Below are positions 9,629 through 33,652 of a stretch of DNA of 64,000 bases, piece after piece (the first letter of the stretch is position 1; every line of letters begins with the position of its first letter). The DNA comes from Acidimicrobiales bacterium. Its GTDB lineage: Bacteria > Actinomycetota > Acidimicrobiia > Acidimicrobiales > AC-14. The notes beneath the pieces were generated by a model that did not search any database, was not told the origin of the DNA, and was given only the letters and a program-made list of their open reading frames with translations. Location: contig DATAQC010000047.1 in NCBI GenBank assembly GCA_036264885.1, forward strand, positions 2,105 through 66,104, written 5' to 3'. The translations under genes were made by a program, and so were the position numbers.

Positions 9629-9672
9629 GCGCCGAGCGTAGGTCCACGGGAGGCCGGGTAGGTTCGGGCGCC

Positions 9673-15743: not shown

Positions 15744-18635
15744 CTAGGAGCGGGACCCGGCCAGCTCCTCGACGAGCAGTGTGCTCTCGACGGTGGGTTC
15801 CAGACCGAGCTCGGCCAACCGGGCCTTGAGGCGGGCGAAGGTGGCTTCCACCTCGTCGGGGCGGAACTGCCGGGCGTGCAGGCGCATGATGCGGCGGTAG
15901 AGCTGCTCGGCCACCGGGTCGACCTCGATGGCGTGGGAGAGCACGTCGAGCGCCCCCCGCACGTCGCCCGCCACCAGGCGGGTGGCGCCCAGGGACACGA
16001 GGACGTCGACGGCCCGCCGGCGCAGGTCTTCGCGCGGGACGTCGGCCCATGCCCAGTCGACGCCGGCCAGGAGCTCACCGTCGTACATGTCGGCGGCGTC
16101 CTGGAGGGCGGCGGCCCACTCGGGGTCGCCGGTGCTGGCCCCGGGGGGCGGCAAGGCGGCCTGGAAGCGCCACAGGTCGACGTCGAAGACGGGCTCGATG
16201 CGGTAACGCTCGCCGTCTCGTTCGATGATCTTCAGGGACTTGATGCCGGTGACGCCCCGCAGGCGGCTGCGCAGGTTGCCCAGCGCGGTCCAGAACCACT
16301 CCGAGCCCCGTCCGGCGTCGGCCTCGGGCCACAGCGCCTCGGTGGCCACGTCGAGGGTGGTGCCCTCGGGGTGCAGCAGGTAGAAGGCCAGGAGCTCGCG
16401 GGCCTTGGCCCGCAGGCCGCTGCGCACCTCGGCGCCGTCCACGTCGATGCGGTAGGGGCCCAGCACCCGGACCTGGATGGGCGCCGGAGTGGGGCCACTC
16501 AGCAGCACGAAGGGCTCGCTGTGCACCTCGACGAGCGGGGTCACCTCGTCGTCGGTCCGCGCCGCGGCCATGACCTCGAGCACCTCGGTCATGGCCTTCG
16601 AGCCCACGGTGAACATCCGGGAGCCGGCCAGGTCGGGTCCCCCGGACGGCCCGACCTCACGCACCGCGCCGCCGGGATCGATGCTGATGACGGTGGCGCC
16701 TTCGGTGGCCTCGCCCACCAGGAGGGCGGTCACGCCGACGTGGCGGCCACGCCCCACGAGGTCACCCACACGCGGTGCCAGAGCGCCCAGCGGTTCCGAG
16801 GTGACCAGCAGCAGGGTCGGGTAATCGGGGTCGTGGCCCCCTCCGGTGGGCGGGGCCGCGGTGCGCCGGGTGATCTCACCCTCGACGGAGTCGAGGGCGC
16901 TGGCCAGGTCGGCGGCGGTTTCAAGACCGGGGAAGTTCGGACGGGTCGGGAGCAGGTCGCCGGCCACGATCACCGAGGCCGAGGGGCCTCGCGTGGCCAG
17001 GAAGGTGGCGACCAGGGCCCGGCCGGCATCGTGGGCGTCGGGACCGACGAGGGCGACAGGCCTGGGAGCCAGGTCGACGGCGACCTCCTCGCCGTCGCGC
17101 TCGGCGGCCACGACGGTCGCGCCGGTGAACGGCGCTCCTGAAGCGCCCCCGCCGCCGTCGGCGGGGGCGGAGCCGGAGCCCCAGGCCAGGCCGCGGCGCG
17201 CCAGGGCGAAGCGCTCCAGACGCCGGCTGAGCTCTCCGGCGAAGGGGTCGTGGCGGAACAGCCCGGCGGCGGGCGCTCCTGCCGGTCGCCGCCGGCGGCG
17301 ACGAAGGCGGGCCCGGCCCAGGGCGGTGCTGACCCCCATGGCGAGCGTGGGGCCCACGGCCACGCCGGGCAGGACACAGGTTACCGCCGACTCCCGGTCG
17401 CCAGGCGCGGCGGGCTCGCCGGCGTCGGCGACGACGCCTCCGGCTGCCGGCGCACCGGCGGAGGACCCGGCCTCGGAGACGTCGGGTGTGGGGCCGGGGG
17501 CGCCGACCTGGCCTCCCCGGGCGACGGGCTCGGCGGCGGCAAACGCCATGGGCCCAGCGGCCATCCCCGGCAGCAGGGGGGTTTGGACGGGGGCGCTGAC
17601 CTCGCCGCCCGGGACGACGGGGGCGCCGACTTCGCCGCGCGGGCCCTCGCCGCCCGGGCCCTCGCCGCCCGGAGGCGGGGCCGCTTCGGCGGTGGTCACA
17701 GGGCCGTCGCTCGGCGACGAGCCCAGCGGGACCACCGGCGGCGCGTCCGGGGCCGGAGGGGCGGGTGCCGGCGCCGGCGACGCCGGCACGGCCGGCGCAA
17801 GCCACCGCTCGACGGCTCGGCGCACGGCCTCGTCGACCACGATGGTAAACCACTCGGCCGCCTCGTCCTGGGCCTCGTGCAGCTGGGACACGATGTCGGG
17901 GCCATCGCCCTCGTCGTCCGCCGGCGCGGGGGCGGCCGAGTGGTCGGCGGACAGGGTGGGGGCCAGGGCGTCGGCCACCGCGGCAGGGAGGGCCTCGGAC
18001 AGGGCGGCGCCGAGTTGGGCCACCACGCCACGCAGCTCGGTCACGGCGCCGGAGACGGCGGACTGCACGGCGCCGGAGACGGCGGACTGCACGGCGCCGG
18101 CCACCAGCTCGGGCAGGGCCTGGGCCAGCTGGGCGCGGGTGTCACGCAGCGTGGCCGCTTCGTTGCGGAGGTGGGCCGTGCAGCCCTCCAGCTCGGCCAG
18201 GGTGGAGTTCAACTCTGTGGCCTGTGACCCGGTGATGCGCAGGACGGTCTCTTCCTGGCGCCCGAGGCGGTTGGACAGGCTCTGCAAGTTGGCGTTGACG
18301 TCGTCGAACTCGCCGCGCAGCCAGGCCAGCACCTCGGCGGCGGGATCGGGCACCGGCGGCGGCGGCTCGGGCCAGCCGCTGTCGGGCTCGTCGATGCCGC
18401 CGTCGGCAGTGCCGTTGCCACTCACCGGTGGCCTTCCTTGGGCCCGCTCAGCTTCCATCTCGGCGGCGATCTCGGCCTTGATCTCCGCTTCGATCTCGGC
18501 GACCGGTGGGACGGGCGGGTCGAGATCGGACCGACCGGGGTAGGCGGGCTCCGGAGGGCGCTCGGACATCACCTCACCCGCCCAGCTGGGGGCACGGTGA
18601 GAACCGCCGTCGGGCGCGCGGGCACCCGGGGACAC
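15744..18635 (-). CDS. Large multidomain protein with C-terminal SARP module (OmpR-type winged helix plus BTAD)
   Basis: The last ~270 aa read VRVLGPYRIDVDG..V......KARELLAFYLLHP.G...D...EALWP followed by a BTAD-like helical region. The N-terminal half is coiled-coil and Pro/Ala-rich with in-frame tandem repeats. The start is uncertain; an alternative ATG lies at 18569. Confidence 0.65.
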   Translation of the reverse strand: MSPGARAPDGGSHRAPSWAGEVMSERPPEPAYPGRSDLDPPVPPVAEIEAEIKAEIAAEMEAERAQGRPPVSGNGTADGGIDEPDSGWPEPPPPVPDPAAEVLAWLRGEFDDVNANLQSLSNRLGRQEETVLRITGSQATELNSTLAELEGCTAHLRNEAATLRDTRAQLAQALPELVAGAVQSAVSGAVQSAVSGAVTELRGVVAQLGAALSEALPAAVADALAPTLSADHSAAPAPADDEGDGPDIVSQLHEAQDEAAEWFTIVVDEAVRRAVERWLAPAVPASPAPAPAPPAPDAPPVVPLGSSPSDGPVTTAEAAPPPGGEGPGGEGPRGEVGAPVVPGGEVSAPVQTPLLPGMAAGPMAFAAAEPVARGGQVGAPGPTPDVSEAGSSAGAPAAGGVVADAGEPAAPGDRESAVTCVLPGVAVGPTLAMGVSTALGRARLRRRRRRPAGAPAAGLFRHDPFAGELSRRLERFALARRGLAWGSGSAPADGGGGASGAPFTGATVVAAERDGEEVAVDLAPRPVALVGPDAHDAGRALVATFLATRGPSASVIVAGDLLPTRPNFPGLETAADLASALDSVEGEITRRTAAPPTGGGHDPDYPTLLLVTSEPLGALAPRVGDLVGRGRHVGVTALLVGEATEGATVISIDPGGAVREVGPSGGPDLAGSRMFTVGSKAMTEVLEVMAAARTDDEVTPLVEVHSEPFVLLSGPTPAPIQVRVLGPYRIDVDGAEVRSGLRAKARELLAFYLLHPEGTTLDVATEALWPEADAGRGSEWFWTALGNLRSRLRGVTGIKSLKIIERDGERYRIEPVFDVDLWRFQAALPPPGASTGDPEWAAALQDAADMYDGELLAGVDWAWADVPREDLRRRAVDVLVSLGATRLVAGDVRGALDVLSHAIEVDPVAEQLYRRIMRLHARQFRPDEVEATFARLKARLAELGLEPTVESTLLVEELAGSRS

Positions 18636-18754
18636 CTGCTCGTCATGACGGCGAGCTTACCGGCAGGGTGCGGCGCGCCCCAGTCCGAGCGGGATGGGCG
18701 ACAGGGCGCCGGCGACCGGGAAGCGGGCGCCCGCCCGAGTACCGTCACCGGTGC

Positions 18755-19768
18755 GTGTCCCCGAGCCCGGCATTCGACCGCCGCATCGACCTGGCCCATC
18801 AGCCGACGCCGCTGGAGCCAATGGACCGTCTGGGGGCCCACCTGGGCATGGCGGCGGGCCGCCTGTGGGTGAAGCGCGACGACATGACGGGGCTGGCCGG
18901 CGGGGGCAACAAGGCCCGCAAGCTCGAGTACCTGTGCGCCGACGCCGTCGACAAGGGCTGCGACACCCTGGTGACCGGGGGCGGCGCCCAGAGCAACCAC
19001 GTACGGATGACGGCGGCGGCGGCCAACCGCCTGGGCCTGGCCTGCACCATCGTGCTGAACGGCGAGCGACCCGAGCCACCGTCGGGCAACGTGGTCCTCG
19101 ACGAGTTGCTGGGTCCCGAGATCGTGTGGGCGGGGCGCCAGGGCGAGCTCGACTACTTCGGCATCGAGGGGGCCATCGACGAAGCCTGCCGGCGCCTGAG
19201 TGCGGGCGGCCGCCATCCCTACGCCATGCCGATCGGCGGAGCCAGCGTGGTGGGAGCCCTCGGCTACGCCCGAGCTGCGGTTGAGCTGGTGGCCCAGGAC
19301 GCAGGGTTCGACCTGGTGGTGGTGGCCGACGGCTCGGGGGGGACCCACGCCGGGCTGGTCGCCGGCCTGGGCGACCACCGGGCGGTCTACGGCGTCGATG
19401 TCGGGGCCCGCCCCGACCTGGACCAGACGGTCCCGCCCAAGGCGGCCGAGGTCGCCGCCCTCGGCGGGTTCCCGGCGCCCGTGGGCGACGCGGGGCCGGG
19501 CGGCCACCCGGCGGCGGTCATCGACCACGACCGTTTCGGGGGCGCCTACGGCGCCCAGACCGACCAGACCCGTCAGGCCATGCGCCTGGCGGCCAGGACC
19601 GAGGGGCTCATCCTCGACCCGGTGTACACGGGCAAGGCCATGGCCGGGCTGATCGCGGGGGTGGCCAGTGGACGCATCCCGGTCGATGCGAGGGTGGTGT
19701 TCGTCCACACCGGTGGGCTGCCGGCGCTGTTCGCCGCCGGCTTCCCCGAGTGGCTCAGCCATGGATGA
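18755..19768 (+). CDS. PLP-dependent D-cysteine desulfhydrase / ACC deaminase family protein
   Basis: Contains PTPLEPMDRLGAHLG..LWVKRDD.TGLAGGGNKARKLEYL. I chose the GTG start at 18755 because the upstream part of track ORF 18506.. is Arg/Pro-rich. Confidence 0.75.
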   Translation: MSPSPAFDRRIDLAHQPTPLEPMDRLGAHLGMAAGRLWVKRDDMTGLAGGGNKARKLEYLCADAVDKGCDTLVTGGGAQSNHVRMTAAAANRLGLACTIVLNGERPEPPSGNVVLDELLGPEIVWAGRQGELDYFGIEGAIDEACRRLSAGGRHPYAMPIGGASVVGALGYARAAVELVAQDAGFDLVVVADGSGGTHAGLVAGLGDHRAVYGVDVGARPDLDQTVPPKAAEVAALGGFPAPVGDAGPGGHPAAVIDHDRFGGAYGAQTDQTRQAMRLAARTEGLILDPVYTGKAMAGLIAGVASGRIPVDARVVFVHTGGLPALFAAGFPEWLSHG

Positions 19769-19800
19769 AGCGCATTTGAGGATCGAAGGTTAGGAGCCGT

Positions 19801-20703
19801 ATGGTGCGCCACAGGATGGCCGACGAGACCGCAGTGAGACCACGCAGTCGCATGGGCGCCTACGTGGCCCTCACCAAGCCGCGGATCATCGAGTTGCTGC
19901 TCGTCACCACGCTGCCGACCATGGTGGTGGCCAAGCGGGGGCTGCCGTCGGGCTGGCTCGTCCTGGAGACCCTGGTCGGCGGGGCCCTGGCCGCTGCCGG
20001 CGCCAACACCATCAACATGTACATCGACCGCGACATCGACAAGCTCATGAAGCGGACGAGTCGCCGGCCCCTCGTCACCGGTGAGATCACGCCCACCAAC
20101 GCCATGGTGTTCGCCGTGACCCTCGAGGTGGCCGCCTTCGGCGAGCTGTGGCTGCTGGTGAACCTGCTGAGCGCCGTCCTGGCGGTGAGCGCCACCCTCT
20201 TCTACGTGTTCGTCTACACGCTCTGGCTCAAGCGCACCTCGTCGAACAACATCGTCATCGGAGGGGCGGCGGGCGCCGTGCCCGTCCTCGTCGGGTGGGC
20301 GGCGGTGCGCAACTCCCTGGGGCTGGCGCCGCTGGTTCTGTTCGCCATCATCTTCTACTGGACGCCGCCCCACTTCTGGGCCCTGGCCATCCGCTACCGG
20401 GAGGACTACGCGGTGGCCGACGTGCCCATGCTGCCGGTGGTGGCCTCCTTCGCCCAGACGGCCCGGAAGATCGTGATCTACACCCTCGTCCTGTGGGCCA
20501 TCACGCTGGTGTTCTGGCCGGTGGGGCAGATGGGCGACCTCTACCTGGCCTCGGCCATCGTGCTCGGTGGGGTGTTCACCTGGAAGGCCGTCCAGTTGGC
20601 CCGCAGCGGCACTCCCGAGCGGGCCATGAAGCTGTTCGGCTGGTCGATCACCTACGTCACCCTGCTGTTCGCGGCCATGGCCGTCGACCAGCTCATCCGC
20701 TAG
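19801..20703 (+). CDS. ctaB: Protoheme IX farnesyltransferase (heme O synthase)
   Basis: UbiA-family polytopic protein. Contains YVALTKPRIIELLL, NMYIDRDID and WTPPHFWALA. Confidence 0.9.
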   Translation: MVRHRMADETAVRPRSRMGAYVALTKPRIIELLLVTTLPTMVVAKRGLPSGWLVLETLVGGALAAAGANTINMYIDRDIDKLMKRTSRRPLVTGEITPTNAMVFAVTLEVAAFGELWLLVNLLSAVLAVSATLFYVFVYTLWLKRTSSNNIVIGGAAGAVPVLVGWAAVRNSLGLAPLVLFAIIFYWTPPHFWALAIRYREDYAVADVPMLPVVASFAQTARKIVIYTLVLWAITLVFWPVGQMGDLYLASAIVLGGVFTWKAVQLARSGTPERAMKLFGWSITYVTLLFAAMAVDQLIR

Positions 20704-20755
20704 TGCGGCTGCGCGAGTCGATCAGCCGCAGGGCTGCTGTATAGAGTCCGCCGAG

Positions 20756-22474
20756 ATGTCTGCGACCGACACGAGCGAGGCACACGAGGTGGAGGCTCCG
20801 GCCGCCGAAGAGGTTCCCGTCTCGGAGCCGTGGTCGCCCGGCACCGACCACAAGGTGGTGGGCACGCTGTTCGTGGTCGTGGGCCTGCTCTTCCTGGTGG
20901 CCGCCGGCGTGCTCGCCCTGGTCCTTCGGGCCCAGATGGCCGGTCCCGACGCCGGCGTGGTGGGGCGAACCACCTACCGCGAGCTGTACACCTTGCACGG
21001 CGTCCTTGGCGTGTTCTGCTTCCTGGGCCCGGTGTGGGTGGGACTGGCCACCGCCATGGTGCCCCTCCAGATCGGCGCCACCCGGCTGGCCTTCCCCCGC
21101 CTGCAGTCCCTGGCCCTCTGGCTGGTCGTGGTCGGGGGGGCGATGATCGTGGCCGCACCCTTCATGAACGGTGCCGACGTCATCAGCGGCTGGGCCCTGT
21201 CCACACCGGTCCCCGACGGAGCCTCGTTCTCCGGGCACGGACCCGACCTGTTGATCCTCGGTCTGGCCATCGTGTGCATCGCCTTGGTGGCGGCTTCGGT
21301 GAACCTGATGGTGACGGTGCTGAAGATGCGGGCTCCGGGTCTCACCCTGCGGCGCGCCCCCCTGTTCTCCTGGTCGGTGCTCGTTTCCAGCTCGATCCTG
21401 CTCCTGGCCCTGCCCGTGCTCGTCGGCGCGCTGGTCATGCTCTTCGTCGACCGCCACTACGGCGGGCACATCTTCAACGGCTTCACCGGCTCGGGCGGCG
21501 GTGACCCGCTCCTGTGGCCCCGACTGTTCTGGTTCGCCGCCTACCCCACGCTGTGGGCCCTGCTGCTGCCCGGCCTGGGCGTGGCCTCCGAGATCGTTCC
21601 CGTCGCCGCCCGCCGCCGCATGTTCTCCCACCAGCGGGCTACCCTCGCCATCGGGGCAGTCGGCATCCTCGCCTTCGCCGGGTGGGGTAGCCAGTTGCAC
21701 TCACTCACCCGGGCCCGCTTCATCTTCGGCGTCGGCGCCATCGTCGTCCTGTTGCCGGTCGCCTCGCTGCTGCTCAACTGGCTGGCCACCCTCGCCATCG
21801 CCATGCGCCAGCACACCGCGGGCCCCAAGAACCTCAAGACGGCCCCCATGGTCTATGCCGGCGGGTTCATCGCCCTCCTGGGCCTGGGAATGGTCGGTTG
21901 GGCCGCCGCCGTGGTGAGCGGCAACGCCGGCCGGTCCAACTACTGGCAGGCCGCCTCGCAGCACACCCTTTTCTTCGGTGCGGCCACGCTGGCGGTGGTG
22001 GCGGCGCTGGCGTACTGGGCTCCCAAGCTGTGGGGCCGGCACCTGTCGGACAAGGCCAGCCTGCCCACCTCGGTCCTGCTCAGCGGAGGCATGGTCGTCA
22101 CCTTCGGTGCCTTCTTCGTCCTCGCCTACCAGGGCCTGGCGATGCACGCGTCGTCGTTCTCCGACACCGACCTGACGCCGGCCAACCTGGTCGCCGGCAT
22201 CGGGTCGGCCATCACCGGTCTCGGTCTGCTGGCGTTCGTGGCCGACCTGTGCGTGAACGTGATCGCCGGGCGGGGCCGCCAGGCGGATCCCGACCCCTGG
22301 ACGGGCCACACCCTGGAATGGTCCACGTCGTCGCCCCCGCCGTCCTACAACTTCGACCGTCTGCCCGAGATCCGCTCCGAGGCGCCCATGCTCGACCTGC
22401 GTAGTGCATCCGACTCCCTTACCGGCCCCGGCGGCGTCCCCATCGCCGCCACCGTCGCCCGGGCGTCGGGATGA
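20756..22474 (+). CDS. Heme-copper oxidase subunit I paralogue lacking binuclear-centre ligands
   Basis: 572 aa. It aligns along its length with the canonical CtaD in this window at DHK, YxxLxTxHG, PLQIGA..LAFPRL, DPLLW, NWLAT, YW.PK..G..LSD and TLEWS. However GHPEVY is AYPTLW, WAHHMF is QLHSLT and AHFHY is ASQHT. Confidence 0.8.
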   Translation: MSATDTSEAHEVEAPAAEEVPVSEPWSPGTDHKVVGTLFVVVGLLFLVAAGVLALVLRAQMAGPDAGVVGRTTYRELYTLHGVLGVFCFLGPVWVGLATAMVPLQIGATRLAFPRLQSLALWLVVVGGAMIVAAPFMNGADVISGWALSTPVPDGASFSGHGPDLLILGLAIVCIALVAASVNLMVTVLKMRAPGLTLRRAPLFSWSVLVSSSILLLALPVLVGALVMLFVDRHYGGHIFNGFTGSGGGDPLLWPRLFWFAAYPTLWALLLPGLGVASEIVPVAARRRMFSHQRATLAIGAVGILAFAGWGSQLHSLTRARFIFGVGAIVVLLPVASLLLNWLATLAIAMRQHTAGPKNLKTAPMVYAGGFIALLGLGMVGWAAAVVSGNAGRSNYWQAASQHTLFFGAATLAVVAALAYWAPKLWGRHLSDKASLPTSVLLSGGMVVTFGAFFVLAYQGLAMHASSFSDTDLTPANLVAGIGSAITGLGLLAFVADLCVNVIAGRGRQADPDPWTGHTLEWSTSSPPPSYNFDRLPEIRSEAPMLDLRSASDSLTGPGGVPIAATVARASG

Positions 22475-23136
22475 CCATGACCGCTCCGGTCCGGGCCACG
22501 GCTCCGACGCCGGCCCCCGCCCCAGGGTTGTCGGCACCGGCGTTGCCTGCGGGCCGCGACGAGCCCATGCCTGCCGGCCGGCCCAACGGCACCACGCTGC
22601 TGGCCATGAAGTTGGTGCTGGCCGCCGACGCCATGGTCCTGGCCACGCTGCTGGTGGCCTACTTCACCATCAAGCAGGGCGCGCCGGTGTGGCCGCCCAA
22701 GGGCGTCAAGGTCGGCACCTACCTGCCCACCATCATCACCATCACCGCCGCCATGTCGGCGGCGTCGGGTTGTTGGATGCTGTTCTGCGTCCGTCGCAAC
22801 GACCAGCGCAACGCGGTGGCCGCCGCCGTGCTCACCGTCATCCTGGGGACGGCCGTGGCCAACGCCCAGTGGTACTCGATCACCAACCCCAAGTTCGGGG
22901 CCGATTCCCACGCCTACGGCTCCCTCTACAAGGTGATGCTCGGGTTCCACCTGGCCCATGTGGTCGCCGGCATGGTCATGATCGTGGTGGTCGCCGCCCA
23001 GGCCCTGGCCGGGCACTACGGCAGCGAAGACCACGAGCCCGTCTCCGCCGTCGTGTGGTTCTGGCAGTTCGCCAACGTCGCCTGGGTGGCCATCGTGGTG
23101 GCCCTGTTCGTCCTCAGCCCCCATGCCACCAAGTAG
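22471..23136 (+). CDS. Cytochrome oxidase subunit III-like paralogue (5-TM type)
   Basis: Its ATG overlaps the upstream stop (ATGA). MLGFHLAHVVAG and WFWQFANVAWV align with LTGFHGAHVTLG and LYWHFVDIVWI of the canonical CtaE in this window. Confidence 0.7.
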   Translation: MTMTAPVRATAPTPAPAPGLSAPALPAGRDEPMPAGRPNGTTLLAMKLVLAADAMVLATLLVAYFTIKQGAPVWPPKGVKVGTYLPTIITITAAMSAASGCWMLFCVRRNDQRNAVAAAVLTVILGTAVANAQWYSITNPKFGADSHAYGSLYKVMLGFHLAHVVAGMVMIVVVAAQALAGHYGSEDHEPVSAVVWFWQFANVAWVAIVVALFVLSPHATK

Positions 23137-23145
23137 GACGACCTC

Positions 23146-24123
23146 ATGCTGAGCCAGTCCTCCAAGGTCTTCCTTCCCCTCGCCGGGCTGTCTTTGGTGA
23201 TGGCTCTCGCCTACGGCATGGCCACCGGCAACACCGACGGCACGGTGCTGTTCTTCGGGTTGGTGGTGGCGGCCACGTTCGCGGGCGTCAGCGTGAGCGC
23301 GGCGCGGGAGAACGAGTTCGCCCCCCGGGTCGCCCCCGACGCCCCTCCACCCGAGTTGCACCGGGTGACGTGGGCCCGCCCCGTGGCCGGAGGGCTGTGG
23401 TCGGCCCTCGGCGCCGCTGCCGTCGGCCTGGCCGTCTGCGGGTTCATCGTCGGTCCCGTCCTGGCCGTCGCCGGCCTGGTGGTGGGGATCGCCGCCATCG
23501 TGGGCTGGATGACCAGCGTCTCGGCCGACCACACCGGCCGCCGTCTCGACCTGTCACCGCTCGCCATACCGGTGGTCGGGTTGTTCACCATCTTCTGCCT
23601 CATGTTCTCCATCTCCCGGGTGCTGCTGGCCGTGCCCGAGCAGGCCTCCACCGTCATCGCCATCGCCATCGCCATCACCATCCTGGGCACGGCTTCGCTC
23701 GTTAACTTCCGGCCCGGGCTGTCCAAGCGGTCGCTGCTCGCCGTCCTGGCCGTGGCCGGGGTGCTGTTCGCCGGTGGCGGGGTGGCGGCCGCCTCGTTCG
23801 GCCCGCGAACGATAGAGAAGCCCGAGGGCGTGGCCCCCGCCCCGGTGAAGCTCGCCGCCGCGGGCATCCAGTTCGTCAACAAGGACCTCACCGTCAAAGC
23901 CAACCTGCCCGCCGAGATCGTCTTCGACAACAAGGACAAGAACATCGTCCACAACGTCGCCGTGGCCAGCGACGCCGACTTCTCCCACCGGATCTTCACC
24001 GGCGACGTGGTACCCGGGCCCCGGACCATCGACTACAAGTTCAAGGCGCCGGCTGCCGGAACCTACTTCTTCCGCTGCGACATCCACCCCAGCATGCAGG
24101 GCAAGTTGACCGTGACCAAGTGA
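23146..24123 (+). CDS. Polytopic membrane protein with C-terminal type-1 copper cupredoxin domain
   Basis: About 6-7 hydrophobic helices are followed by IQFVNKDL.V......VFDNKD...HNV ... YFFRCDIHPSMQGKLTV. The ligand pattern H...C-x2-H-x2-M is amicyanin-like. It starts 9 nt after the upstream gene. Confidence 0.75.
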   Translation: MLSQSSKVFLPLAGLSLVMALAYGMATGNTDGTVLFFGLVVAATFAGVSVSAARENEFAPRVAPDAPPPELHRVTWARPVAGGLWSALGAAAVGLAVCGFIVGPVLAVAGLVVGIAAIVGWMTSVSADHTGRRLDLSPLAIPVVGLFTIFCLMFSISRVLLAVPEQASTVIAIAIAITILGTASLVNFRPGLSKRSLLAVLAVAGVLFAGGGVAAASFGPRTIEKPEGVAPAPVKLAAAGIQFVNKDLTVKANLPAEIVFDNKDKNIVHNVAVASDADFSHRIFTGDVVPGPRTIDYKFKAPAAGTYFFRCDIHPSMQGKLTVTK

Positions 24124-24232
24124 GGCGCGTCAGCGACCGTGTGACGGGTGTGGCCGAGATTGGACGAGTGACCGGGAGGCGGGAGACAGTGGGGGCGAAC
24201 ATGACCGCCAGCGCCACCGGGAGACCACCGAA

Positions 24233-25240
24233 GTGAGCAGGACGCACAGACGGGTGCGCCTCGGCGTCATCCTCGCTCTGGCCGCCCTGGCGGTAGCCGC
24301 CTGTTCGTCGAACGCTCCCCAGACCACGCTCGACCCCCAGGGCCCGAACGCCCGCACCATCAGCCACCTCATCAACCCGGTGTTCTGGGTGGCAGGCGTC
24401 GTCTTCGTCCTGGTCGAGGGCATGGCGATCATCTTCGTCATCAAGTACCGCGACCGGGGCGATTCCCAGGAACCGGTGCAGATCCACGGCAACAGCCGCC
24501 TGGAGGTGGGCTGGACCCTCATCCCCGCCGCCATCCTGGTAGCCGTGGCCATCCCCACCATCGCCACCATATTCAAGCTGTCGAAGAAGCCTGCCCATGC
24601 CATCAACGTCACGGTGACGGCCCACCAGTGGTGGTGGGAGTACAACTACCCCGATCTGGGCGTGGTGACGGCCAACGAACTGCACATGCCGGTGAAGCAG
24701 CCGCTGGAGATCACCCTCATCGGTGCCGACGTGATCCACAGCTTCTGGGTGCCGGCGCTGGCGGGCAAGCAGGACGTGGTCCCGGGGCGGGTCAACCACA
24801 TGAACATGACCGGCGACAAGGTGGGCACCTTCCTCGGCCAGTGCACCGAGTTCTGCGGCTCCAGCCACGCCAACATGCGCCTGAAGGCGATGGTCCAGAC
24901 CCCTCAGGACTTCCAGTCGTGGGTCGCCAGCCAGCGCCAGGCGGCCGCCACTCCGACCGGCGGCTCTCCGGCCGACGAGGGCCTCACCCTGTTCACATCG
25001 AAGGGCTGCTCCGGCTGCCACACCGTGCAGGGTGTGTCGGACGGCAAGGTCGGTCCCAACCTCACCCACCTCCAGAGCCGCACCAGCTTCGCCGGCGCCA
25101 TCTTCACCATGAACCCGGACAACCTGAGCACCTGGCTGAAGAACCCGCCGGGCGTGAAACCCGGTTCCAAGATGCCCAATCTCAACCTGAGCGGCGACGA
25201 GATCTCCAAGCTCGTCGCCTACCTCGAGACCCTCAAGTGA
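24233..25240 (+). CDS. ctaC: Cytochrome c oxidase subunit II with fused C-terminal cytochrome c domain (caa3-type), lipoprotein
   Basis: Lipobox LAVAACSS. CuA site HSFWVP...CTEFCGSSHANM. C-terminal heme c site GCSGCH with a downstream KMPN. Confidence 0.9.
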   Translation: MSRTHRRVRLGVILALAALAVAACSSNAPQTTLDPQGPNARTISHLINPVFWVAGVVFVLVEGMAIIFVIKYRDRGDSQEPVQIHGNSRLEVGWTLIPAAILVAVAIPTIATIFKLSKKPAHAINVTVTAHQWWWEYNYPDLGVVTANELHMPVKQPLEITLIGADVIHSFWVPALAGKQDVVPGRVNHMNMTGDKVGTFLGQCTEFCGSSHANMRLKAMVQTPQDFQSWVASQRQAAATPTGGSPADEGLTLFTSKGCSGCHTVQGVSDGKVGPNLTHLQSRTSFAGAIFTMNPDNLSTWLKNPPGVKPGSKMPNLNLSGDEISKLVAYLETLK

Positions 25241-25277
25241 TCTGCGACGCCGCGTTGACCGTCGAAGGAAGCCGCTG

Positions 25278-27455
25278 ATGACCATCGTCACCGATCCCCC
25301 CGCTCGCCCCCCGGTCGCCACACCGCCGGACCAGCCCATCCGGCTGCTCCGCCGGCCCACCGGTTACACCAAGGGCATCTGGTCCTGGGTGACCACCGTC
25401 GATCACAAGAAGATCGGCATCATGTACGGAGTCACCGCCTTCGTCTTCTTCCTGCTGGGCGGCATCGAGGCCCTGATGCTGCGCATCCAGCTGGGCTCGC
25501 CGAACAACACGTTCCTCAGTGCCGACACCTACAACCAGGTGTTCACCATGCACGGCACGACCATGATCTTCCTGTTCGTGATGCCGCTGTCGGCGGCGTT
25601 CGCCAACTACCTGATCCCGATACAGATCGGGGCGAGAGACGTGGCCTTCCCCCGCCTCAATGCCTTCGGGTACTGGGTCTTTCTCGTCGGTGGGCTGTTC
25701 ATGTACTCCAGCTTCATCCTGGGCGGCGCCCCCAACGGCGGGTGGTTCGGCTACGCCCCCAACACCCTCAAGCTCTACAACCCGGGCCACAACATCGACT
25801 TCTGGGTGTTCGGCCTGCAGATCCTCGGCATCGCCTCGCTCACCGGCGCGGTGAACCTGATCGTCACCGCCATCAACATGCGGGCGCCGGGCATGAGCCT
25901 GTTCCGCATGCCCATCTTCACCTGGATGTCGCTGGTGGCCCAGTTCCTGCTGCTGTTCGCCATCCCGGTCATCACGGTGGCGCTGTTCCTGCTCATGTTC
26001 GACCGCACCTTCGGGGCCAACTTCTTCAACGCCCAGGCAGGATCAGACCCACTTCTGTGGCAGCACCTCTTCTGGCTCTTCGGCCATCCGGAGGTCTACA
26101 TCCTCATCTTGCCAGCCATGGGGATCGTCTCAGAGGTGATCCCTGTCTTCGCTCGCAAGCCCCTGTTCGGCTACCAGGTGATGGTGTTCTCGGGCATCGC
26201 CATCGGCTTCATGGGCTGGGGCGTGTGGGCCCACCACATGTTCGCCACCGGCCTGGGCCCGGTGGCCACCTCGGCCTTCAGCGCCTCCACCATGTTCATC
26301 GCCGTCCCCACCGGGGTGAAGATCTTCAACTGGCTGGCCACCATGTGGCGGGGCAAGATCAAGACGAACGCGCCCATGCTCTTCGCCGTGGGCTTCGTGG
26401 CCATGTTCACCATCGGTGGGCTGTCGGGCGTGACCCACGGCGTGGTGCCCGCTGACACCCAGCAGACCGACACCTACTACGTGGTGGCCCACTTCCACTA
26501 CGTGCTGTTCGGTGGGAGCGTCTTCGGCCTGTTCGCCGGGATCTTCTACTGGTACCCCAAAGTGGTCGGCCACATGCTGTCCGACACGTTGGGCAAGATC
26601 CAGTTCTGGCTGTTCCTCATTGGGTTCAACATGACCTTCGGGCCCTTCCACATCCTGGGCCTCGAGGGCATGCCCCGGCGCATCTACACCTACCCGTCCC
26701 ACCGGGGCTGGGACTTTTGGAACATGATCTCCACCATCGGCTCCTTCGTCATCGCCGCCGCCGTCCTGCTGTTCATCTACAACGTGTGGAGCTCGAGGAA
26801 GAACCCCAAGGTCGGCAACGACCCGTGGGACGCCCGCACCCTGGAGTGGAGCATCCCGTCGCCGCCGCCGGAGTACAACTTCGCCGAGGTCCCGCTGGTC
26901 ACCGCCCGCGACGACCTGTGGCACCGCAAGTACACCGAGGACGAGAACGGACGCACCATTCCGCGCCATCCCGCCGACGCCCCCGCTGAAGCGGAGACCG
27001 AGGCGGTGGTGCGCGCCGCCGTCACCGACGACCCGTCCGGCGACGGCGACGGGTCCGGAGCCGATGCCAACCAAGGTGACGCCGCCCACGACGGCGACGC
27101 CCACGACGGCGACCCCGCCCGCGACGGTGACGCCCGCGACGGTGACGGTGACAGCCACGACGGCGACGCCGGCGGCCACGAGGAGCACGAGCCGCACGTC
27201 CACATGCCCTCCCCCTCGTACTGGCCCGCCTTCAGCTCGATCGGCCTGGCCGTCATTTCCTACGGGATGATCTACCGGGTGTGGGTCGTGGCCATCCTCG
27301 GCGGCCTGTGGGTGCTCGGCGGGCTCTACGCCTGGAGCCTGGAGCCGGCCACCGCCCCCGAAGAGCCCGAGCTCGACACCGAGCCGTCCACCGACCTCGA
27401 ACCCGTAGGCGTGGGGCCCGCAGGCACCGCCGCCGGCAGCGGGGGGTCGGACTGA
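25278..27455 (+). CDS. ctaD: Cytochrome c oxidase subunit I, with D/H-rich insertion and two extra C-terminal helices
   Basis: All canonical motifs are present: TMHG, WLFGHPEVYILILP, VWAHHMF and VVAHFHYVLFGG. A ~190-aa C-terminal extension contains PSPSYWP plus 2 TM helices, resembling the N-terminal helices of Cox3. Confidence 0.92.
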   Translation: MTIVTDPPARPPVATPPDQPIRLLRRPTGYTKGIWSWVTTVDHKKIGIMYGVTAFVFFLLGGIEALMLRIQLGSPNNTFLSADTYNQVFTMHGTTMIFLFVMPLSAAFANYLIPIQIGARDVAFPRLNAFGYWVFLVGGLFMYSSFILGGAPNGGWFGYAPNTLKLYNPGHNIDFWVFGLQILGIASLTGAVNLIVTAINMRAPGMSLFRMPIFTWMSLVAQFLLLFAIPVITVALFLLMFDRTFGANFFNAQAGSDPLLWQHLFWLFGHPEVYILILPAMGIVSEVIPVFARKPLFGYQVMVFSGIAIGFMGWGVWAHHMFATGLGPVATSAFSASTMFIAVPTGVKIFNWLATMWRGKIKTNAPMLFAVGFVAMFTIGGLSGVTHGVVPADTQQTDTYYVVAHFHYVLFGGSVFGLFAGIFYWYPKVVGHMLSDTLGKIQFWLFLIGFNMTFGPFHILGLEGMPRRIYTYPSHRGWDFWNMISTIGSFVIAAAVLLFIYNVWSSRKNPKVGNDPWDARTLEWSIPSPPPEYNFAEVPLVTARDDLWHRKYTEDENGRTIPRHPADAPAEAETEAVVRAAVTDDPSGDGDGSGADANQGDAAHDGDAHDGDPARDGDARDGDGDSHDGDAGGHEEHEPHVHMPSPSYWPAFSSIGLAVISYGMIYRVWVVAILGGLWVLGGLYAWSLEPATAPEEPELDTEPSTDLEPVGVGPAGTAAGSGGSD

Positions 27456-28084
27456 TGGTCGTCACCGCCAGCGAGGGCAGCCACACCGAGGACCCCGCCA
27501 TCCCCGAGGGCCACCCGCCCACGGCCACCGGGCTCAGCAACGAGAAGGTGGCGATGTGGGCCTTCCTGGGCTCGGAGTGCCTGCTCTTCGGTGCCCTCAT
27601 CTCGGTGTACCTGCTCTTCAAGGGCCAGAGCCAGCCCAACACCATCACCCCCAAGAACGTCTACGACATCCCCTTCACATCGGTCAGCTCGTTCGTGCTG
27701 CTGATGAGCTCGCTCACCATGGTGCTGGCCCTGGCCGCCATCCAACGGGGAGACCACCGCCGCCTGCGGATCTGGGTGCTCACCACCGCCCTGCTGGGGG
27801 CCACCTTCGTGGCGGGCCAGATGTACGAGTTCACCACCTTCTACAGCAAGGGCCTGAAGATCTCCACCAACCTGTTCGGGAGCAGCTTCTTCGTGCTCAC
27901 CGGCTTCCACGGGGCCCACGTCACCCTCGGCATCCTCATGCTCCTGACGCTGTGGAACCTGTCGGTGCGGGGGAAGCTCCCGGCCAACCGATCCGAGACG
28001 GTCGAACTGGTGGGCCTGTACTGGCACTTCGTCGATATCGTGTGGATCATCATCTTCACACTCGTCTACCTCATCCCGTCCTGA
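27455..28084 (+). CDS. ctaE: Cytochrome c oxidase subunit III (5-TM form)
   Basis: Contains GSECLLFGALI, GFHGAHV and LYWHFVDIVWI. The start overlaps the ctaD stop (TGATG). I trimmed it from track ORF 27281..28084. Confidence 0.88.
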   Translation: MVVTASEGSHTEDPAIPEGHPPTATGLSNEKVAMWAFLGSECLLFGALISVYLLFKGQSQPNTITPKNVYDIPFTSVSSFVLLMSSLTMVLALAAIQRGDHRRLRIWVLTTALLGATFVAGQMYEFTTFYSKGLKISTNLFGSSFFVLTGFHGAHVTLGILMLLTLWNLSVRGKLPANRSETVELVGLYWHFVDIVWIIIFTLVYLIPS

Positions 28085-28455
28085 TGGCCACTGAAGCCGA
28101 GATCGAAGAGACCGCCTTCCCCGACGGCGGCGCCGTCGTCGCTCACGCCACCGACGAGGCGGGCGCGCCGCACCCCCACAAGCACCCCACCGAGGGCCAG
28201 TACGTCCTCATCGCCCTGTTGCTCGCCGCCATCACCGGCGTCGAGGTGGCGGTCTATTACATCTCCGCGCTGGGAGACCTGCTGGTCCCCCTCCTGCTGC
28301 TCTTCGCCATCGTCAAGTTCAGCGTGGTGGTGGCCTTCTTCATGCACCTGCGCTTCGACAGCCGCCTGTTCCGCCGACTGTTCGTTCTCGGCCTGGGCCT
28401 GGCCATATTCGTGTTCACCGTCGTGTTGACCACCTTCCACTTCTGGTCCCGGTGA
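28084..28455 (+). CDS. ctaF: Cytochrome c oxidase subunit IV (prokaryotic COX4/CyoD-like)
   Basis: 123 aa with 3 TM helices. Contains KFS.VV.FFMHLRFD. The start overlaps the ctaE stop (TGATG). Confidence 0.75.
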   Translation: MATEAEIEETAFPDGGAVVAHATDEAGAPHPHKHPTEGQYVLIALLLAAITGVEVAVYYISALGDLLVPLLLLFAIVKFSVVVAFFMHLRFDSRLFRRLFVLGLGLAIFVFTVVLTTFHFWSR

Positions 28456-28456
28456 C

Positions 28457-29419
28457 ATGACCGGCGCGCTGGCCGCCGTGAGCTTTCCCGGGTGGCACGC
28501 CCACCCCGACGTCTGGGCCCTGCTGGGCGGCGTCCTGGCCGGTTACCTGTTGGCCGTCCGTGCCGGACGGGCCCGGGGATCGGTCACCACAGCCCGGCAG
28601 GTGGCCCTGTTCTGCTCGGGCGTGGCCGTGTTGTGGGTGGGATCGGACTGGCCCGTGCACGACCTGGCCGAGGGGTACCTCTACAGCTTCCACATGGTGC
28701 AGCACCTCTTGTTCACCCTGGTGGCCGCCCCCCTGCTGTTGCTGGGGACGCCGGCCTGGATGGGGCGCCGGCTCCTCGGTGTGGGGGCGGCCGGGGAGCC
28801 GTCCAGCCGCCGCCTCCCCGTGGTGAGATGGCTGGCCCGGCCCGTGCCCGGGCTCATCCAGTTCAACCTGGTGCTGGTGCTGAGCCACTGGCCGGCGGTG
28901 GTCGAGGCCACCCTGGTACACCACCCGTTGCACTTCGTGGCCCACGCCCTGCTCCTGGTGTCGGCCCTGCTCATGTGGATGCCTGTCGCCAGCACCGTTC
29001 CCGAGGTCCCTCGGGCCCGGCCGCCCACCCAGATGCTCTACCTGTTCCTCCAGACGATCATCCCCACCGTTCCCGCGTCGTTCCTGACCTTCGGGGACAA
29101 ACCGCTCTACCACATCTACGAGACCTTCCCCCGGCTGTGGGGCGTGGGGGCTCTCACCGACCAGCAGGTGGCCGGCCTGATCATGAAGCTGGCCGGCGGC
29201 TTCTACCTGTGGACGGTCATCGCCGTGATCTTCTTCCGCTGGTACCAGCGTGAGGAAGCCGAGAACGCCTCCGGCCCCGGGCCTCCCGGCCGCCCGGCCG
29301 AGCCGCCGCCCAAGGCCGACGACGACGTCCTTCTCTGGGCCGACGTGGAACAGGAGTTGCGCCGACTCGACGCACCCTCGGGGGGCTCTGCCCCCCGAGT
29401 CCCCCCTGAAGTCAACTAG
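28457..29419 (+). CDS. ctaG: Cytochrome c oxidase assembly factor CtaG (Bacillus caa3_CtaG type)
   Basis: Polytopic protein. Contains the SFHMVQHLLFTLVAAPLLLLGTP motif. It starts 1 nt after the ctaF stop. Confidence 0.8.
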   Translation: MTGALAAVSFPGWHAHPDVWALLGGVLAGYLLAVRAGRARGSVTTARQVALFCSGVAVLWVGSDWPVHDLAEGYLYSFHMVQHLLFTLVAAPLLLLGTPAWMGRRLLGVGAAGEPSSRRLPVVRWLARPVPGLIQFNLVLVLSHWPAVVEATLVHHPLHFVAHALLLVSALLMWMPVASTVPEVPRARPPTQMLYLFLQTIIPTVPASFLTFGDKPLYHIYETFPRLWGVGALTDQQVAGLIMKLAGGFYLWTVIAVIFFRWYQREEAENASGPGPPGRPAEPPPKADDDVLLWADVEQELRRLDAPSGGSAPRVPPEVN

Positions 29420-29568
29420 CGCTCGGGGCTGCCGGCGGACGGGTCAGGTGCCCCGGCCGGTGCGCTCCTGCAACTCGTCGATGCGCTTGGCCATCGAACA
29501 CCTATTCGTCCCAGGACTTCGACCATCGGGCTGGCAAAGCCCCCCGACTGTGCGGCTACCGTGCCCCA

Positions 29569-30852
29569 ATGCTCGACCTCAGGCGACTCCGCACAGATCT
29601 GGACGCGGTCATGGCCGGGTTGGCCCGCCGGGGCCTCGACCTCGGCGACATCGAACGGGCGGCCGCCCTCGAGGCCCGGCACCGGGCCCTGAGCACCCGG
29701 GCCAACGAGCTGCGGGCGGCGGTGCGGGTTCTGTCGGGCGAGGTGGGCAAGGCCAAGAAGGCGGGCGACGTCACCGGGGCCGAGGCCAAGGCGGCGGACA
29801 GCCGGGCCCTGGGCGCCGAGGAGAAGACAGTGTCGGCGGAGGCCGACGTGGTGGCCGGCGAGCTCCGCCAGCTCCTGTTGCACACCCCCAACCTGCCTGC
29901 CGACGACTGCCCGGATGGCGCCGGGGCCGACGACAACGTGGTGGTCCGGGTGGAGGGCTTCGACGCCGGCGCCTACGCCGACCACCAACGGGTACCCCAC
30001 TGGGACGTGGGCTCGGCTCTGGGAATCCTCGACCTGGAGCGGGGAGCCAAGCTCTCCGGCTCGATGTTCCCCGTGTACCGGGGGGCGGGGGCCACCCTGA
30101 CCAGGGCCCTGTGCCAGCTGGCCCTCGACCTCAACGCCGACGCCTTCGAGGAGATACGGCCTCCCACCCTGGTGCGCACCGAGACGATGCTGTCCACCGG
30201 CCACCTCCCCAAGTTCGCCGACGACGCCTATCACCTCGAGCGCGACGACCTGTGGGCCATCCCCACCGCCGAGGTACCGCTGACATCGCTCGGTCGCGAC
30301 GAGCTGTTCGACGAGGCCGACCTGCCCGTGCGGCTCATGGCTCACACCTCGTGCTTCCGCCGGGAGGCCGGTTCGGCCGGCCGCGACACCAGGGGGCTGC
30401 TACGGGTCCACGAGTTCGACAAGGTCGAGATCCTCGCCTATGCCACTCCCGAGCAGGCGGCAGCCGTCCACGCCGATCTCCTGCGCCGGGCCGAGGCTCC
30501 CCTGCGGGCCCTGGGGCTGGCCTACCGGGTCGTCGACCTGTGCGCCGGCGACCTGGGGGCGTCGGCGGCCCGGACGTTCGACCTGGAGGTGTACGCACCA
30601 GGGTGCGACCTGTGGCTGGAGGCGTCTTCGGTGTCGTGGTTCACCGACTACCAGGCCCGCCGGGCCAACATCCGCTTCCGGCGGGCGAGCGGCGGTACCA
30701 GCCACGTCCACACGTTGAACGGCTCGGCGCTGGCCGTACCCCGGGTGTGGGCGGCGGTGGTGGAGACCTGGCGCCGGCCCGACGGGACGGTCGAGGTTCC
30801 CGAGGTGCTGTGGCCCTACCTGCGGGGCGCCACCGTCATCGGGGGACGGTAG
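29569..30852 (+). CDS. serS: Seryl-tRNA synthetase
   Basis: 427 aa. An N-terminal coiled-coil arm is followed by a class II core with FRREAGS.GRDTRGL.R.HEF.KVE. Confidence 0.92.
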   Translation: MLDLRRLRTDLDAVMAGLARRGLDLGDIERAAALEARHRALSTRANELRAAVRVLSGEVGKAKKAGDVTGAEAKAADSRALGAEEKTVSAEADVVAGELRQLLLHTPNLPADDCPDGAGADDNVVVRVEGFDAGAYADHQRVPHWDVGSALGILDLERGAKLSGSMFPVYRGAGATLTRALCQLALDLNADAFEEIRPPTLVRTETMLSTGHLPKFADDAYHLERDDLWAIPTAEVPLTSLGRDELFDEADLPVRLMAHTSCFRREAGSAGRDTRGLLRVHEFDKVEILAYATPEQAAAVHADLLRRAEAPLRALGLAYRVVDLCAGDLGASAARTFDLEVYAPGCDLWLEASSVSWFTDYQARRANIRFRRASGGTSHVHTLNGSALAVPRVWAAVVETWRRPDGTVEVPEVLWPYLRGATVIGGR

Positions 30853-33294: not shown

Positions 33295-33600
33295 ATGAAG
33301 TTCCTGGTCGTGTGGAAGATGGAGATCTCCCGGCTGTCGACGGACATGATGAAGACCGTCCTGCGGATGCCCGACTTCGCCAAGCCGCTGGAGGAGAGCG
33401 GCAAGGTGGTGGGGCGCTACCACATCGTCGGCTACCACGGCGGGGCGTGGATCTTCGACGTTGGGTCCAACGACGAGCTCGAGATGCTGCTGGCCCAGAT
33501 GCCGGTGTACAACCTCTCCCACTTCGACGTGTACCCGTTGGCCGACATGTCATCGTTGCCGGTGGTCCCCCCTGGTGAGGGGAGCGGCTCGGGCGGGTAG
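33295..33600 (+). CDS. Small alpha/beta protein, DUF3303 / muconolactone-isomerase-like
   Basis: The ATG is preceded by GAGGAGG at 33283-33289. The MKFLVVWKME... N-terminus is typical of this fold family, though my recognition is weak. Confidence 0.55.
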   Translation: MKFLVVWKMEISRLSTDMMKTVLRMPDFAKPLEESGKVVGRYHIVGYHGGAWIFDVGSNDELEMLLAQMPVYNLSHFDVYPLADMSSLPVVPPGEGSGSGG

Positions 33601-33652
33601 GCACAACCACGAGCAGACCCTTCGTCTGCCCGCGAGACGGGAGGACATACCC

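Follow-up and report, generated by a model that had tools for sequence, protein, structure and literature searches.

A stretch of 64,000 nucleotides from an Acidimicrobiales metagenome-assembled genome (GCA_036264885.1, contig DATAQC010000047.1, positions 2,105 to 66,104; hereafter the window, meaning this whole stretch) carries, between the heme O synthase gene ctaB and the genes of a caa3-type cytochrome c oxidase, a trio of genes that combines an altered second copy of an oxidase membrane core with a copper protein. The first gene encodes a pseudo-subunit I (CtaD′), which keeps the two histidines of the low-spin heme and has replaced the residues of the O2-reducing centre together with those of both proton channels. 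The second encodes a subunit III paralogue (CtaE′) of five transmembrane (TM) helices, and the third a fusion protein in which helices related to the actinobacterial subunit IV, CtaF, are followed by three further helices and by a cupredoxin with the ligands of a type-1 copper (T1Cu) site. As to the role of these proteins, we tentatively favour a scaffold without catalytic activity, to which a one-electron copper carrier for the neighbouring caa3 oxidase is tethered. All of the parts come from known superfamilies, namely the core subunits of heme-copper oxidases (HCOs), CtaF and the T1Cu cupredoxins, and a literature search of incomplete coverage turned up neither a subunit I family without the ligands of the binuclear centre nor a CtaF-cupredoxin fusion.

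The proteins of the trio

20756-22474, + strand: COX1-like gene, pseudo-subunit I CtaD′, 572 residues (PF00115, E=3e-70)
22471-23136, + strand: COX3-like gene, five-TM subunit III paralogue CtaE′, 221 residues (PF00510, E=4e-17)
23146-24123, + strand: fusion protein of 325 residues, seven TM helices plus cupredoxin (Cupredoxin_1, residues 236-323, E=1.9e-8)
23146-23535, + strand: fusion residues 1-130, CtaF-like four-TM segment (actinobacterial subunit IV), from family profiles
23554-23796, + strand: fusion residues 137-217, three-TM anchor, from invariant residues in the family alignments A4 and A5
23845-24120, + strand: fusion residues 234-325, predicted outward-facing type-1 copper cupredoxin (PF13473, 34.7 bits against a cut-off of 27)

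The three genes are tightly joined, the ATG of the COX3-like gene (22471-22473) overlapping the TGA of the COX1-like gene (22472-22474) in a 4-nt ATGA, and the TAG of the COX3-like gene being separated by exactly 9 nt (23137-23145) from the ATG of the fusion gene, 8 nt 5′ of which an AGGA is found. One gene caller places the COX3-like start at 22567, which gives 189 residues; the overlapping start is the one used in three orthologous loci. A first-pass annotation of the window, made from the sequence alone, had already described the overlap, the spacer and the 325-residue protein with its C-terminal cupredoxin, all of which are seen in the sequence. It had also proposed a paralogous subunit I/III pair without an O2 site, which the residues described below bear out, and made no mention of the low-spin-heme histidines.

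CtaD′ has the 12-TM fold of COX1, to which the Pfam match extends across residues 35-486, and is 35% identical to the adjacent CtaD, but it scores below the equivalog cut-offs (TIGR02891, 366 bits against 670.75; NF050116, 330 against 880). In an alignment of 121 orthologues sharing 53-100% identity, H81 (20996-20998) and H403 (21962-21964), the histidines of the low-spin heme, are invariant (121/121). The other ligands have all changed: the three CuB histidines are Y, S and Q in the window protein (Y or F, S, and E or Q across the orthologues) and the proximal histidine of heme a3 is S (T, Q, E or S). Similarly, the cross-linked tyrosine has become W and D132 has become R, both in 121/121, while E286 is replaced by T (L, T, M or V) and K362 by L (L or V). 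Compared with a functional A-family subunit I, the protein thus has the fold and the low-spin histidines and lacks the CuB and heme a3 histidines, the tyrosine, the channel residues and an equivalog-level score. By these residues CtaD′ is catalytically dead, and the trio cannot reduce O2 or pump protons by known routes. Invariant positions among the orthologues include 80 that match CtaD and 43 more that differ from it, and this invariance, together with a G+C content at third codon positions (GC3) of 0.90, indicates a gene under selection and not one in decay. A pseudogene reading was rejected on the conservation.

Few membrane enzymes have been studied as thoroughly as the HCOs, whose six metal-binding histidines are taken as the hallmark of the superfamily. 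Here we find a family that has replaced four of the six and lost both proton channels, yet is kept in an oxidase operon under purifying selection. A survey of HCOs from 2024 reported that the active-site histidines are fully conserved in every family but gNOR, where one is replaced (PMC11214002), which places the CtaD′ family outside the described diversity of HCOs. Membership in a NOR-type family was considered and rejected, since those families retain the active-site histidines (PMC11214002).

The COX3 assignment of CtaE′ follows from Pfam (63.3 bits, cut-off 23.8), the match covering positions 79-255 of the 258 in the profile, that is, its five-TM part. Identity to the real CtaE is 25% (E=7e-17), and the score against the equivalog model NF050119 lies under the cut-off (70.7 against 190).

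For the third protein, the AlphaFold 2 (AF2) model shows seven helices and a cupredoxin β-sandwich, which settles on the higher figure the six to seven helices counted in the first-pass annotation. Family profiles that include the window protein (A4 and A5) align TM1-4 with CtaF of Corynebacterium glutamicum (7q21_F, E=2.8e-7 and 5.4e-6, respectively) and with its counterpart of Mycobacterium smegmatis (6adq_H, E=5e-5 and 3e-4), and likewise match 9wcx_m and 8hcr_H; a weaker match was obtained to the N-terminal helices of Cox3 from Rhodobacter sphaeroides (E=2e-3). In this line, PF12270 (Cyt_c_ox_IV) matches 9 of 47 family members, some members are already named 'cytochrome c oxidase subunit 4' by NCBI, and TM3-4 of the fusion, which carry a G-G-x-W-(P/S) motif, correspond to helices 1-2 of subunit III. 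The link to CtaF is a transitive one, through intermediate members, because neither the window sequence alone nor the narrow Acidimicrobiales profile A3 reaches it: a Pfam search with the N-terminal 222 residues alone gave no match, and A3 gave non-significant matches only against the PDB sequences (the N-terminus of Cox3, E=0.69). The membrane region that had been a blank to Pfam was thus placed by the broader family profiles.

CtaF supplies helices 1-2 of the canonical subunit III, CtaE and CtaF making up the whole subunit between them (PMC8361435). From this and the homology of TM1-4 it follows that the trio is a paralogous I/III/IV set plus copper, and the imitation of an I/II/III oxidase proposed earlier holds for I and III, with no subunit II paralogue within the module. 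Judging from the helices that each contains, the third gene would supply precisely what the five-TM CtaE′ is missing of a subunit III. The CtaF of active aa3 oxidases is a stand-alone subunit of ~140 residues, whereas its relative here is the N-terminal third of a 325-residue fusion with dead partners. That the fusion protein is a homologue of subunit II, for which the first-pass annotation had taken it to stand in, was rejected: it has no PF00116 or PF02790 (COX2 or COX2_TM) match and a single Cys, and its first helices belong with subunit IV. With subunit II (CtaC/CoxB), including the CuA-less versions in quinol oxidases and gNOR, it shares an outer-face cupredoxin carried on TM helices and encoded together with I and III; it differs in a mononuclear single-Cys T1 motif in place of H..CxExCxxxHxxM and in a TM part that is CtaF-like and not COX2_TM-like. 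Altogether, the trio resembles the A-family HCO core (caa3, or the aa3 of bcc-aa3) in its COX1, five-TM COX3, CtaF-type helices and low-spin histidines. It departs from that core by the missing CuB and heme a3 histidines, Tyr, D- and K-channel residues and subunit II, and by a CtaF-like part that continues into three further helices and a T1Cu cupredoxin.

Between the CtaF-like segment and the cupredoxin, the three-TM anchor is recognised by the invariant P138, P142, S157-R158 (in an SRxLL motif), G212 and G219 of alignments A4 and A5, and in other Actinomycetota the same element lies N-terminal to the cupredoxin of stand-alone proteins. With strict loop boundaries, the even loops contain 3, 2 and 1 Lys or Arg and the odd loops none, so that by the positive-inside rule the N-terminus is placed inside, the C-terminus outside and the cupredoxin on the outer face. 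The linker from TM7 to the cupredoxin has only ~16 residues (218-233), and such a short linker suggests a fixed site and not a diffusing shuttle.

The cupredoxin itself has as ligands H269 (23950-23952), C311 (24076-24078), H314 (24085-24087) and M317 (24094-24096), invariant in 24/24 homologues of 40-78% identity, so that the loss of ligands in orthologues, which would have spoken against the first-pass annotation, was not seen. The motif HNV...CDIHPSM contains the spacing C-x2-H-x2-M, a short loop of the amicyanin type, as had been proposed, and the domain reads as a single-Cys T1Cu cupredoxin and not as CuA; the CuA loop is in the neighbouring CtaC (CTEFCGSSHANM), along with a CSGCH heme motif. 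The AF2 model of this domain has a predicted local distance difference test score (pLDDT) of 88-93, and its best Foldseek matches are all electron carriers, led by auracyanin A (2aan, E=1.5e-8) and amicyanin (1sfd, 3e-8), with CupA (4f2e) ranking low among the fold matches. Against the amicyanin equivalog model the domain reaches no more than 19.7 bits (cut-off 110). Its ligands are spaced exactly as in the amicyanin loop; amicyanin and auracyanin are soluble or singly tethered, whereas the window domain stands at the C-terminus of a polytopic homologue of an oxidase subunit, on a short linker.

Distribution of the trio and of its cupredoxin

The order ctaB-trio-ctaCDEF-ctaG recurs in ~30 Acidimicrobiia-type genome loci, in every one that is adequately flanked, and in 36/36 metagenome loci with enough flank, which were retrieved with a profile of the distant family (A6). 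The trio is never split, the three genes being adjacent and co-oriented in all these loci, and such an arrangement is therefore not due to chance. The co-occurrence of the three genes in related genomes, whose absence would have spoken against the first-pass annotation, is confirmed in this way. An exhaustive profile search yielded 791 cluster representatives with the 7-TM domain, and the orthologue clusters number in the hundreds, from ~30% to 100% identity, with length, motifs and gene order conserved. The CtaD′ family is apparently widespread in Acidimicrobiia. Its members and their partners are currently labelled 'cbb3-type cytochrome c oxidase subunit I', 'plastocyanin', 'cupredoxin domain-containing protein' or 'hypothetical protein', and with proteins so mislabelled the metabolic reconstructions of metagenomes will count one oxidase too many.

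The Cys-His-Met loop motif is present in every Acidimicrobiia-type locus (L028 being scored, here and in the tallies below, on its complete gene). In the wider family the trio usually comes without the cupredoxin, and many members are also without the heme histidines; most of the 7-TM proteins from metagenomes end in an acidic tail instead, and a few have degenerate cupredoxins. The loci divide as follows:

Intact cupredoxin, 33 loci: both low-spin histidines in 30, one in 1, neither in 2 (L040 and L051)
No cupredoxin, 30 loci: both low-spin histidines in 6, one in 9, neither in 15

This co-occurrence of the cupredoxin and the histidine pair rests mostly on one clade, and hence on few independent events. 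Among the distant pseudo-subunits I, that of L086 keeps only the second low-spin histidine, and those of L040, L051, L119 and L135 have neither and are apparently cofactor-free.

The cupredoxin also occurs away from the trio. In ~45 other loci of Actinomycetota, all without COX1-like or COX3-like paralogues, a stand-alone protein of ~200 residues homologous to residues ~132-323 of the fusion is encoded directly 3′ of ctaG in a ctaCDEFG cluster, and consists of the three-TM SRxLL anchor and one or two T1Cu cupredoxins with their ligands intact. The first-pass annotation had held that a cupredoxin found without the paralogues would speak against it, and this is partly the case. Since trios without the cupredoxin and cupredoxins without the trio both exist, a T1Cu 'entry site' is not the defining feature of the module that it was taken for. 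Two tandem cupredoxins, each with a full set of T1Cu ligands, are frequent among the stand-alone proteins (L036, L043, L056, L061 and others, at ~9001-9900). One member of the broad family has a weak match to PF06525 (SoxE). Moreover, in two loci from metagenome-assembled genomes of Chloroflexia (L065, 9001-9273; L079, 9001-9276), a cupredoxin-only homologue, 45-47% identical to residues 234-323, follows directly 3′ of ctaC-ctaE-ctaD, an arrangement that recalls auracyanin as an oxidase-linked carrier.

Two variations of the locus were observed among relatives. A second, divergent Caa3_CtaG paralogue, ~30% identical to ctaG, lies on the minus strand between ctaB and the COX1-like gene in most related loci (L002, L004, L007, L009, L012, L013, L016-L020, L023-L026 and L032) and is absent from the window and its closest relatives, L006 and L008. 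In L002, L022-L025, L030 and L032 an insert of 3-6 kb separates an intact trio from ctaC, and in L002 (10402-12780) it encodes a Fur-family regulator and a metal ATP-binding cassette transporter of the ABC-3 type.

Possible roles beside the caa3 oxidase

In the explanation that we tentatively favour, CtaD′, CtaE′ and the CtaF-type helices make up a paralogue of the oxidase membrane core that lacks catalytic function. CtaD′ can bind neither CuB nor heme a3 and has no proton channels, with a bis-histidine site for one low-spin heme remaining in this clade, and the CtaF-type first four helices of the fusion would complete a subunit III with the five of CtaE′. This dead core could be a membrane scaffold or docking partner of caa3, and the short-tethered blue-copper centre would be held by it at the outer face of the membrane, there to accept one electron at a time from an upstream donor and deliver it to CtaC at its cytochrome c/CuA entry. 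The heme that is retained might serve as a buffer or side relay. The cupredoxin probably passes its electrons to CtaC, and the real caa3 oxidase is its most parsimonious partner, because the cupredoxin module accompanies the real oxidase where the paralogues are absent, because its nearest relatives are electron carriers, and because its gene lies directly 5′ of ctaC, like cup in Acidithiobacillus ferrooxidans. For the core itself, a structural role is suggested by the trios that survive elsewhere without redox ligands, 15 of the 30 cupredoxin-less loci having neither histidine. The sequences themselves show the gene structure, the homologies, the ligands lost and kept, the topology and the synteny, while we infer the occupancy of the copper and heme sites as well as the direction and the partner of electron transfer.

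A role of this kind would resemble the known or proposed ones of AcoP, auracyanin and sulfocyanin. AcoP, the product of cup, has a single cupredoxin domain whose green site is formed by one Cys, one Met and two His, with a ligand loop of unusual length. Its gene comes directly 5′ of COX2 in an oxidase cluster, and the protein associates with cytochrome c and the oxidase and sustains oxidase activity. The likeness to the window protein is one of gene position and ligand set. AcoP has one membrane anchor, whereas the window domain, with its short loop of the amicyanin type, sits on a 7-TM CtaF-like protein beside dead copies of I and III. The sulfocyanin SoxE is a blue-copper internal electron carrier in the SoxM terminal oxidase supercomplex of Sulfolobus; it is archaeal, singly anchored and accompanied by active oxidase subunits, unlike the trio. 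Actinomycetota are usually described with a cytochrome bcc-aa3 supercomplex and without mobile carriers, and in this regard the blue-copper domain of the fusion, together with its stand-alone relatives, suggests that the phylum has a caa3 oxidase fed by a cupredoxin. Moreover, respiratory pseudoenzyme subunits are scarcely documented, and a role for a dead copy would add a new element to the architecture of bacterial respiratory chains.

Several points weigh against the tethered-carrier explanation. It offers no reason why a cell would retain ~1100 residues of dead oxidase for anchoring alone, and it presupposes a complex of the three proteins with each other or with caa3, which we infer. For the TM domain alone, the AF2 monomer model reaches only moderate confidence (pLDDT 72), and a Foldseek search with it returned nothing with E<0.7, CtaF (6hwh_S) and Cox3 (1qle_C) appearing as non-significant matches. 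The propionate-binding Arg-Arg pair, which in canonical oxidases links CuA to heme a, is x-His in the CtaD′ orthologues. In addition, the conservation of H81 and H403 in 121/121 indicates that heme binding matters, and a pure scaffold needs none, while the presence of both histidines in 30/33 cupredoxin-bearing loci against 6/30 of the others is compatible with a copper-heme relay. Such strict conservation within the clade keeps alive both a relay and a platform for oxidase biogenesis.

The latter would make of the dead core an assembly chaperone of caa3, for example a place where heme O/A is kept, in the bis-His pocket that remains, on its way from CtaB/CtaA to CtaD, the cupredoxin aiding copper redox or handover together with Caa3_CtaG. 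We hold it to be rather doubtful, although the trio always lies between ctaB and ctaC, an extra Caa3_CtaG paralogue adjoins it in most related loci, the stand-alone three-TM cupredoxins come directly 3′ of ctaG and at times 5′ of a second ctaG, and the sole cofactor site that CtaD′ retains is that of a heme a type. Many family members without both heme histidines still keep the trio, so that holding heme is not a family-wide role, and the H/C/H/M set with its amicyanin loop is the mark of an electron-transfer copper and not of Cys/Met-type Cu(I) chaperones, to which CupA and PCuAC belong. To our knowledge, known assembly factors are small and never full copies of subunits I and III, which also counts against such a scaffold. 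As for the relay, the T1Cu and the low-spin heme of CtaD′ might compose an autonomous wire of two centres between a donor or acceptor in the periplasm and a membrane partner, working as a quinol:cupredoxin oxidoreductase that feeds caa3 or as a redox sensor. This would agree with the strict conservation of both centres in the clade, with their co-occurrence in the tally given above, with the fixed position above the core that the short tether suggests, and with real oxidases, in which the cupredoxin domain is ~19 Å from the low-spin heme. It is nonetheless unlikely, as L040 and L051 combine an intact T1Cu cupredoxin with a CtaD′ that has neither heme histidine, the same cupredoxin works without any CtaD′ in other Actinomycetota, the Arg pair that would lead from CuA to heme is lost, no quinone site has been identified, no search aimed at one having been made, and the co-occurrence is dominated by a single clade. 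The copper-heme co-occurrence was also considered as proof of a relay; the association is real, but it depends for the most part on this clade and has the two counter-examples L040 and L051.

We give equally little credence to the trio as an unrecognised respiratory complex built on an HCO scaffold without O2 chemistry, with a wire from T1Cu to the low-spin heme. It is no more probable that such a complex would be a quinol-oxidising, cupredoxin-reducing stand-in for complex III before caa3 or an obligatory heterodimer that regulates or feeds the live oxidase, nor that the ligand-less Acidimicrobiia versions would then be later degenerations. A membrane-tethered copper chaperone that works with CtaG to deliver copper to the CuA and CuB of the real oxidase, and not a redox carrier, seems quite improbable: the stand-alone versions are tightly linked to Caa3_CtaG genes and the cupredoxin-fold chaperone CupA is among the fold matches, but the complete and invariant His/Cys/His/Met set in a C-x2-H-x2-M loop is a classical electron-transfer site, and electron carriers take all the top places among the structural matches. 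Copper carriers of a cupredoxin-like kind, CopC among them, are known as well (PMC4059628). Hardly credible, finally, is that the three genes are relics of a second oxidase operon without present function. All catalytic residues are indeed lost, but the open reading frames are intact, with GC3 values of 0.90-0.94, the orthologue clusters extend by the hundreds down to ~30% identity with length, motifs and order conserved, and 80 plus 43 positions of CtaD′ are invariant; on sequence grounds, this conservation effectively refutes the relic.

The rest of the cluster and its surroundings

19801-20703, + strand: ctaB, heme O synthase, upstream neighbour of the trio (NCBIfam NF003349, 407 bits against a cut-off of 246)
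24233-25240, + strand: ctaC, caa3-type subunit II with CuA and a fused cytochrome c domain (TIGR02866, 196 bits against a cut-off of 148; PF00034)
25278-27455, + strand: ctaD, canonical subunit I with every ligand present and a C-terminal extension (TIGR02891, 734 bits against a cut-off of 671)
27455-28084, + strand: ctaE, canonical five-TM subunit III (PF00510 recorded for the identical gene in L088)
28084-28455, + strand: ctaF, Bacillus-type subunit IV (COX4_pro) of the real oxidase (PF03626, E=7e-12)
28457-29419, + strand: ctaG, Caa3_CtaG assembly factor (PF09678, E=4e-47)

From ctaB to ctaG all genes are co-oriented, and the trio is apparently in one operon with the genes of the caa3 oxidase. 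A consensus scan found no promoter-like site in 18300-30000, and in the same interval there were 6 terminator-like matches, not far from the shuffled expectation of 3.4 (standard deviation 2.1), with no excess inside the cluster.

Some peculiarities of the real oxidase were also observed. CtaC, the caa3 subunit II, has a lipobox-like LAVAAC near its N-terminus and may therefore be a lipoprotein; in the calls of one gene finder, ctaC begins 21 nt later, at 24254. The canonical CtaD is 725 residues long, and past the COX1 domain (residues ~560-725) it has an Asp/His-rich low-complexity stretch (DGDAHDGD..., HEEHEPHVH) and then a two-TM hairpin that starts with PSPSYWPAFSSIGL, similar to the start of subunit III helix 1 and to TM3 of CtaF (hhalign against profile A5, E=5e-4, probability 31%). 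Helices 1-2 of subunit III may thus be fused onto subunit I in the real oxidase, and in the dead copy they may be found in the third gene.

Upstream of ctaB, and syntenic in relatives, lie the genes of a 970-residue regulator with a BTAD domain (15744-18656, - strand) and of a pyridoxal phosphate-dependent enzyme of the D-cysteine-desulfhydrase/1-aminocyclopropane-1-carboxylate-deaminase family (18506-19768, + strand). About 9 kb 3′ of the oxidase cluster, a protein of 385 residues (33353-34510, + strand) joins a DUF2231 membrane domain to a C-terminal Rieske 2Fe-2S domain, an unusual membrane-anchored type of Rieske protein.

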